4,936 nucleotides of DNA, taken from the IMG/VR virus record IMGVR_UViG_2645727676_000016; one strand, written 5' to 3'. The notes beneath the pieces are model-generated. The model was not told where the DNA came from. It made no database searches and was given only the letters and a program-made list of their open reading frames with translations. The position numbers and the translations under genes were made by a program. The stretch's first letter is position 1. Each line of letters begins with the position of its first letter. Below are positions 433 to 931 of the stretch, piece after piece. The stretch comes from a virus (Duplodnaviria > Heunggongvirae > Uroviricota > Caudoviricetes).

Positions 433-647
433 TGCTATGCGTTACCTTTGAATACCACACAGATAAAATGATTCGCTACATCTCCGACCTCCTGATTAAA
501 GGAAACGGATTCGGTGACACCCATAACTCAAAAGATATTTTCATTAAAGCCATTGGCCCAAATGAAACACTGAAAACAGCAGTCAAGCCACAATGGTTTG
601 AACGTCATAAGATTGAATTAGGTTATTGGGGTGAGGAGGTTTTATGA
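432..647 (+). CDS. small hypothetical protein (71 aa)
   Basis: ATG 432 shares its A with the preceding TAA (TAATG overlap); G-rich GGGGG at 423-427 upstream; 71 codons to TGA 645-647. No recognisable motif. An internal ATG at 468 has no Shine-Dalgarno. Confidence 0.55.
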   Translation: MLCVTFEYHTDKMIRYISDLLIKGNGFGDTHNSKDIFIKAIGPNETLKTAVKPQWFERHKIELGYWGEEVL

Positions 648-931
648 AACCTTGGCATGAAGATGTTAGACGATATTTTACAGAACACCTTATCTATGAT
701 GAATCCAGTGATTCCCTGTACTGGTCTGATGGAGAGTCAGTCACGATAAATACCGACGACTACGGCAACAAAACATTTAATATAGGCCGATATACTTTCT
801 ACGTGAAATATGTTGTCTGGTTCCTTTATCATGGCTATCAATCCAATAAGCAAATTATCCATCGAAATGGTAACAGAGCCGATACCAGACCAAAAAATCT
901 TATGCAAGTCCGAGACTTTAAGAGAAATTAG
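644..931 (+). CDS. HNH_3-like small protein (95 aa), divergent at usually conserved catalytic positions
   Basis: ATG 644 overlaps the preceding stop (ATGA); GAGGAGG at 633-639 with 4-nt spacer; 95 codons to TAG 929-931. The segment YDESSDSLYW...GRYTFYVKYVVWFLYHGYQSNKQIIHRNGNRADTRPKNLMQV aligns by eye to the core of small phage HNH_3-type endonucleases (approx. G.Y....HRLAW...G.....IDHINGNR.DNR..NLR.V). The canonical D-H / N positions read I-H-R...D-T-R here. No cysteines. Confidence 0.6.
   Translation: MKPWHEDVRRYFTEHLIYDESSDSLYWSDGESVTINTDDYGNKTFNIGRYTFYVKYVVWFLYHGYQSNKQIIHRNGNRADTRPKNLMQVRDFKRN

Follow-up and report, generated by a model that had tools for sequence, protein, structure and literature searches.

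HNH', the 95-residue protein encoded at 644-931 of the window (the whole stretch of DNA analysed, 4,936 nucleotides), is probably a domesticated, catalytically disabled HNH_3 module of the I-HmuI type, which selection would keep as a non-cleaving DNA-binding or adaptor protein. As judged from its sequence, it keeps the N-terminal β-sheet region and the His-Me β-hairpin, including H73 and N85, and is without both the metal-holding Asp (now I72) and the core α-helix whose first-turn Asn would be the principal metal ligand. With both metal-holding parts missing, HNH' most likely cannot cleave DNA. It would be made in fixed proportion with the coupled p92 (ribbon-helix-helix-like) and p71 (Table 1). 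The window is 99.7% identical to the chromosome of Escherichia coli strain 20, in which PGAP labels HNH' 'HNH endonuclease', and the close protein relatives of HNH' are found in E. coli and E. albertii only.

Table 1. Features of the window and the evidence on which each is placed
Feature	Position	Strand	Evidence or remark
p185, 3' end, first gene of the coupled set	1-153	+	Stop 151-153; annotated context in L001
p92, probable tandem ribbon-helix-helix DNA-binding protein	154-432	+	By eye; ATG 154
p71, small protein, candidate partner of HNH'	432-647	+	TAATG 430-434 joins p92; ATGA 644-647 joins HNH'
HNH' ribosome-binding site GAGGAGG (633-639) and ATGA start/stop overlap with p71	633-647	+	Sequence reading
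HNH' coding sequence, 95-residue degenerate HNH_3 protein	644-931	+	ORF list, Pfam, AF2, Foldseek; start ATG
Ile72-His73	857-862	+	General-base His (I-HmuI H75); Ile in place of metal-ligand Asp (I-HmuI D74); family HMM, alignment, 1u3e mapping
Asp80-Thr81-Arg82	881-889	+	Stands for the family's near-invariant D-N-R
Asn85-Leu86	896-901	+	Structural 'N' of the H-N-H motif (I-HmuI N87-L88); invariant
Arg94-Asn95-TAG	923-931	+	ORF end (stop 929-931), where the core α-helix and metal-binding Asn (I-HmuI N96) should begin
Non-coding spacer and p107 leader	932-1084	+	153 nt, conserved
Hydrophobic 25-residue ORF, MTLIVLWTLLGLFVGCWVGNAVNKN, unannotated	1408-1485	+	TAATG coupling to p107 stop
Sigma-70-like promoter	1510-1538	+	TTGACA, 17-nt spacer, GATGAT or CATAAT; nearly invariant
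Candidate small RNA, ORF-free for ~200 nt after the promoter	1510-1745	+	Terminator hairpin 1710-1732 and T-run at end
Terminator-like hairpin, 16 pairs and T-run	2947-2984	+	Between 71-residue gene 2698-2913 and tape-measure gene
Tape-measure gene	3081-4936

HNH_3 membership and the His-Me site

The resemblance to HNH_3, claimed by eye in the original prediction, is borne out by profile searches: Pfam HNH_3 (PF13392; His-Me finger group 2) matches HNH' with E=1.8e-8 (34.3 bits; gathering score 24.8) and PHROG 99, 'HNH endonuclease', with E=6e-9. The Pfam match aligns residues 53-89 with profile positions 2-39 of 46, and the last seven positions (40-46), which form the core helix with the metal-binding Asn, therefore have no counterpart in HNH'. 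This combination of a significant HNH_3 match with an incomplete canonical catalytic set agrees with the original prediction, which an intact set or the lack of any HNH match would have contradicted. The NCBIfam search of HNH' matched no family, and phmmer against PDB sequences returned antibody scFv16 chains only, which are chance matches. A scan of 1.8 billion representative proteins gave 69 matches, most of them HNH_3 proteins of 160-300 residues, many with two or three HNH_3 domains. The profile search recovered 5,704 proteins, the best of which are HNH_3 proteins of 160-170 residues, many with a C-terminal AP2 domain; 110 of the 5,704 were used to build a family HMM.

The consensus of this HMM, '...iDHingdkadNRiaNLRevtk.aeNkqn', stands against '...IIHRNGNRADTRPKNLMQVRDfKRN*' in HNH'. 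Residues 71-82 (nt 854-889, IIHRNGNRADTR) read I-I-H-R-N-G-N-R-A-D-T-R, exactly the motif first reported. In a 120-sequence alignment H73, R82, N85 and L86 fall in invariant columns, and at least 90% of the sequences have D at I72, N at T81 and R at M87; the family consensus assumed earlier was thus right for the I72 and T81 columns. The claim of substitutions at catalytic positions holds for D-to-I, which alone affects a residue with an assigned catalytic role (metal ligand); the position of the I-to-R change varies in the family, and that of N-to-T is conserved but without a demonstrated role. The largest defect had escaped the original prediction: the protein ends at N95 and the core helix is absent.

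We mapped the family profile onto I-HmuI (chain 1u3e_M), where the consensus D, H, N(L) and helix N correspond to D74, H75, N87 and N96; the equivalents in HNH' are I72, H73, N85, and R94 or N95. We take D74 and N96 of I-HmuI to be metal binders, and D839, H840 and N863 to be the equivalent positions in Cas9; a literature search on the roles of Asp74, His75 and Asn96 of I-HmuI found nothing. N95 lies at +10 from N85, compared with the canonical +9, which is occupied by Arg. It reaches the helix Asn column of the 120-sequence alignment through a gap only, and both HMMER and MAFFT need a one-residue insertion to place it on the consensus Asn. In the His-Me superfamily the core helix carries, in its first turn, an Asn/His that binds the metal directly; the D/E/H before the catalytic His is often a metal ligand as well, and the His is the general base (PMC5714182). 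HNH' thus scores above the profile threshold and has the general-base His (H73) at the end of β-strand 1 and the structural Asn (N85), whereas the ligand before the His (I72) and the core-helix ligand, features of an active His-Me enzyme, are lacking.

The AF2 model of HNH' (pLDDT 91.8, pTM 0.81) was computed from the 120-sequence alignment, an input dominated by canonical family members. It shows a helix (6-15), five strands within 16-53, a second helix (54-63) and the two strands of the His-Me hairpin (70-73 and 86-89); no core helix follows the hairpin, and the last five residues have a pLDDT of ~51. Foldseek against the PDB gave one real match, I-HmuI (1u3e; probability 1.00, TM-score 0.63 on the query, rmsd 3.0 Å over 81 columns), and every other match had E >0.7. 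Taken together, the model and the structure search show HNH' to consist of the N-terminal sheet and the hairpin that I-HmuI-like enzymes have, and to lack both their helix and their C-terminal DNA-binding domain. HNH' shares with I-HmuI (PDB 1U3E) and with the phage HNH_3(+AP2) endonucleases of 160-170 residues the Pfam family, the fold of N-terminal β-sheet and β-hairpin, and the H, NG, D.R and NL positions; unlike them, it has no Asp before the His, no core helix Asn and no C-terminal AP2 or HTH domain, and is about half as long. What HNH' retains is the half of I-HmuI on which its model superposes; for this reason DNA is its likeliest ligand, and a protein partner the alternative. The N-terminal part of I-HmuI reportedly contacts DNA in the 1U3E structure.

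With no targeting domain (AP2, NUMOD, HTH) and a fixed place in an operon, the gene is not a typical homing endonuclease gene, and the sporadic presence and absence expected of such a gene is not what is observed. A terminase-associated HNH protein of the HK97 gp74 type (PF01844) does not fit either: HNH' matches PF13392 only, and the island that carries it has no terminase gene.

Two lineages under selection and a class of degenerate domains

The gene occurs in two forms, the H-type represented by HNH' and a divergent F-type. Among 5,426 complete E. coli genomes, 226 carry the H-type, always at ≥95% nucleotide identity, and 67 the F-type. The F-type orthologue of island L006 is syntenic, has 90 residues and is ~40% identical to HNH'; its sequence, IIFRDGNKRNCHPNNLLQEV, is without the His, the Asp and the helix, and its end, '...KYVIWFLHHEVQATKKIIFRDGNKRNCHPNNLLQEV', has Phe for the catalytic His and stops five residues after the NL. 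The closest non-trivial database relative (P0010) is also F-type. All island variants inspected have one or the other type, in the same operon, the H-type gene being broken in the L008 type.

Both types are under purifying selection, with pN/pS about 0.1. In 14 sampled H-type copies (from E. coli, including O157:H7, and of the E. albertii type), 12 alleles differ by 38 synonymous and 14 non-synonymous changes (pN/pS 0.10; binomial p=1.7e-16 against neutrality); six F-type alleles differ by nine synonymous and six non-synonymous changes (pN/pS 0.115; p=8e-4). I72, H73, T81, N85 and N95 are the same in all 12 H-type alleles, and the I72 codon shows a synonymous change among them. Over five island variants HNH' is the best conserved of five genes (92-98% amino acid identity, compared with 24-96% for the others). 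Loss of catalytic residues and purifying selection on the reading frame, the pair of features by which a domesticated pseudo-nuclease is recognised, are thus found together. Of the two options in the original prediction, an inactivated nuclease that has been retained or a variant active site, these data favour the first: both metal-ligand positions are compromised, in the manner typical of a whole degenerate class of HNH_3 domains, selection acts in both lineages, and the sister lineage has dispensed with the catalytic His.

The same data bear on the idea that HNH' is a decaying, functionless pseudogene, the nonsense-truncated 5' half of a 165-residue HNH_3-AP2 homing endonuclease. Its closest full-length profile matches are indeed HNH_3(+AP2) proteins of 160-170 residues, the stop falls within the conserved 'eNkqN' helix, and a minority of genomes have broken copies (42 residues remain in the L008 type; P0005 and P0006 are frameshifted), which indicates that the gene is dispensable in some backgrounds. 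However, the pN/pS of about 0.1 in two lineages, the length of 95 residues in all 14 sampled copies, the preservation of the gene in 226 E. coli genomes, its place as the best conserved gene of its neighbourhood, the lack of an AP2 remnant downstream and the intact F-type frame, which at ~40% identity also ends just past the NL, are all at odds with decay. The selection data largely refute a pseudogene, which fails for the bulk of the copies and which we hold to be very improbable.

To place HNH' among its relatives, we scored every domain aligned to it in the 69 representatives (109 domains, not phylogenetically independent). When Asp precedes the His, Asn is found at +9 after the NL in 45 domains and missing in four; without the Asp, it is found in four and missing in 56. 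The two residues are thus kept or lost together (Fisher p=3.6e-21 over the 109 non-independent domains). Tandem proteins show where the loss falls, with the Asp present in 3 of 44 first copies and in 32 of 46 later ones. The degenerate first copies retain the His in 38 of 44 cases and also keep NG, D.R and NL, which points to a structural role and makes these residues poor indicators of activity. Several proteins have the degenerate domain in last place, with the end of the chain less than ~12 residues past the NL; helix-less endings therefore recur. With Ile for the Asp and Arg at +9, HNH' belongs, on its sequence, to this degenerate HNH_3 class, which consists mostly of first copies of tandem proteins. 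Such repeats, from genomes and metagenomes, are its best remote matches: like HNH' they have x-H for D-H and no +9 Asn, and keep NG, D.R and NL. HNH' differs in standing alone at 95 residues instead of being fused to a competent domain and in having T for the N of DNR, and the likeness is structural only.

Of course, the invariance of H73 in the H-type and the His of 38 of 44 degenerate first copies could reflect residual chemistry rather than structure. We nevertheless think it unlikely that HNH' is still an active nicking endonuclease, in which H73 would be the base and the metal would be held by N95 or the terminal carboxylate with the help of water or DNA phosphates. N95 is one residue out of register and terminal, in a low-confidence tail without a helix. 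The Asp is lost, and the loss of the +9 Asn in 56 of 60 Asp-less relatives fits a relaxed catalytic constraint. The syntenic F-type protein, with Phe for the His and no tail, is under the same purifying selection. What speaks for activity is that H73, N85 and N95 are invariant in the 12 alleles, that the K93 and R94 codons show synonymous changes only, and that the alignment programs do put N95 on the ligand column; in most His-Me enzymes, moreover, the helix Asn/His is the only direct metal ligand (PMC5714182).

A disabled, retained module has precedents. The MH1 domain of Smad and the nuclease-like domain of Enpp are dead His-Me fingers that have been retained, MH1 for DNA binding (PMC5714182). 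Like HNH', they preserve the nuclease fold without catalytic competence; they belong to unrelated eukaryotic subfamilies and lack the His, whereas H-type HNH' keeps the His and is without the metal ligands and the helix. A second precedent is CapR of the Vibrio PLE satellite. Like HNH', it is an endonuclease-derived protein from a small island that has a serine recombinase and a link to a virulent myophage; CapR represses the capsid gene of the helper by binding its promoter (quoted in bioRxiv 10.1101/2022.07.18.500453). CapR comes from a different nuclease family, and the relation is one of analogy, not homology. In function, HNH' would stand closest to dead His-Me fingers (Smad MH1) and to regulators that derive from nucleases (CapR).

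The coupled operon and the sequence downstream

HNH' had been described as the last gene of a translationally coupled set of three. It is coupled and it is last, in a run of at least four genes (p185, p92, p71 and HNH'), and the ATGA overlap with p71 is kept in variants L002-L005, L007, L009 and L013. By eye, p92 probably consists of two ribbon-helix-helix repeats, 'LTRISEEAFNELTRIKRATN...' and 'HIRITQDALDTLKGLNG...'; its profile matches are weak and limited to a sub-threshold DndE. It lies upstream of the HNH' gene in H-type and F-type islands alike. The F-type operon runs p92, HNH', p66, with p66 coupled by TAATG, and p66 is clearly homologous to p71. The small gene is thus downstream of HNH' in the F-type and upstream in the H-type, and the survival of this linkage through a changed gene order argues for a functional pair. 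The suggestion that its coupled neighbours may work with HNH' gains from this, in that a neighbour of 66-71 residues stays coupled even when the order is swapped, and p71 may bind HNH'. No family in Pfam or PHROG matches p71, its homologues are almost confined to Escherichia/Shigella, and its AF2 model is poor (pLDDT 63) and unfit for a structure search.

The constant coupling to p71, whatever the gene order, is also what one would expect of a protein-binding adaptor or inhibitor that does not bind DNA but docks on p71, or that poisons a protein of a phage, its HNH_3 enzyme or some other, by mimicking a subunit of it. Tandem degenerate domains usually adjoin a competent domain, which likewise suggests a domain-to-domain role. 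We consider such an adaptor rather unlikely: the model of p71 is poor, and the retained N-terminal sheet corresponds to the superposable part of I-HmuI, which reportedly contacts DNA. Our preferred reading remains a non-cleaving module with DNA as its most probable ligand.

Downstream of HNH', the spacer that leads to p107 shows higher conservation than many of the island's coding regions. From ~nt 943 onwards it recurs ahead of p107 in the F-type island L006, in which HNH' is not the neighbouring gene, and it probably serves as a regulatory leader. We considered whether it contains a lost AP2 domain, since frame +1 at 946-1066 ('NYLILGWVIPLQATPEKDCLARYRAIEEVW') looks AP2-like by eye and gives a few weak collinear tblastn matches. 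This was ruled out: Pfam and the family HMM find nothing there, a 2-nt indel separates the variants, and the spacer is shared with L006. Read-through of the TAG was also rejected; the 'KN' after the stop fits the consensus 'NkqN', a match of two residues only that we judged not significant.

Further downstream, the 25-residue ORF is kept in the island variants with conservative changes and could encode a small membrane peptide. The ORF-free region that begins with the promoter is a candidate small RNA, as suggested by its predicted folding (MFE -54.8 kcal/mol, z=-3.9 against mononucleotide shuffles) and by hairpins with compensating differences between variants. Rfam searches of the window and the island gave sub-threshold miRNA families only, which we take as chance.

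The island and its link to Felixounavirus phages

The HNH', p71 and p92 genes lie in the leftward operon of a compact integrative island that spans some 10-13 kb and has a large serine recombinase at its boundary (L001 16100-27700; also L009-L013). The island occupies at least three chromosomal sites: between yciI and tonB, between msyB and a lipid A acyltransferase gene (presumably lpxL), and, in O157:H7, within a DUF72-family gene between yecN and yecD that we take to be yecE. Upstream of p185 lies an ORF-poor stretch of ~1.6 kb that is kept at ~75% identity. The gene for a 190-residue serine invertase/resolvase, found in other island copies, is missing in strain 20 (L001 17038-19596; L009 6398-8900); a search for an invertible switch found no convincing inverted repeats beside this small invertase gene. 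We checked whether the island is SpLE2 or Sp13 of O157 Sakai, and both are unrelated elements. Nor is it one of the published helper-embedded satellites, which are tyrosine-integrase elements.

The tail genes of the island connect it with phages. Its Dit-like gene is 81% identical in amino acids and 91% in nucleotides to the gene directly downstream of the tape-measure gene of virulent Felixounavirus phages. The tape-measure protein of the island is collinear with the Felixounavirus protein over its full length and only 27-33% identical to it. At the start of the tape-measure gene, the first 85 nt (3080-3164) are 86% identical to Escherichia phage garuso and the first ~136 nt 76% identical to Felixounavirus PHB11, and the interior is far more diverged. 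With its start and the 91%-identical Dit-like gene both matching, the divergent tape-measure gene has homologous sequence at either side. In the O157:H7 copy (L013 5955-6479 and 11323-14714) this gene is split by IS629/IS1203, and the same island encodes a 174-residue 'AP2/ERF' protein that is 42% identical to the product of a PHB11 ORF beside the DNA polymerase gene. For HNH' itself, tblastn against phage genomes found a distant match in a Sulfitobacter phage only, and none in Felixounavirus.

The island may be an undescribed satellite or interference element directed at Felix-O1; our literature search for a Felixounavirus satellite, or for one that combines a serine recombinase with a tape measure, found nothing relevant. 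It is conceivable, though doubtful, that HNH' is the domesticated homing-endonuclease module of an undescribed E. coli island directed against virulent Felix-O1-like phages, loosely as PLE is against ICP1. HNH', with p71 and the ribbon-helix-helix protein, would then bind island or phage DNA without cutting it and would control, or respond to, phage infection, and the island would supply a divergent tape-measure protein beside a near-identical copy of the tail gene that lies downstream in the phage. The sequences document the phage link and the pseudo-nuclease character separately, and any connection between the two is conjecture.

Hundreds of E. coli genomes, O157:H7 among them, have this gene under the label 'HNH endonuclease', and the sequence indicates a protein that probably does not cut DNA; the analysis corrects a widespread annotation. 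Beyond this one gene, HNH_3 has a large and apparently unnamed class of domains in which the two metal ligands are lost jointly and which yet persist, often beside an active copy; the class bears on the reuse of homing-endonuclease modules as binding proteins. The island context is more intriguing than the HNH' gene itself. A parasite or defence island of Felix-O1-like phages would, if that is what it is, matter more widely because these phages are used in typing and therapy, and the HNH' gene would then be a handle on the control circuit of the island.
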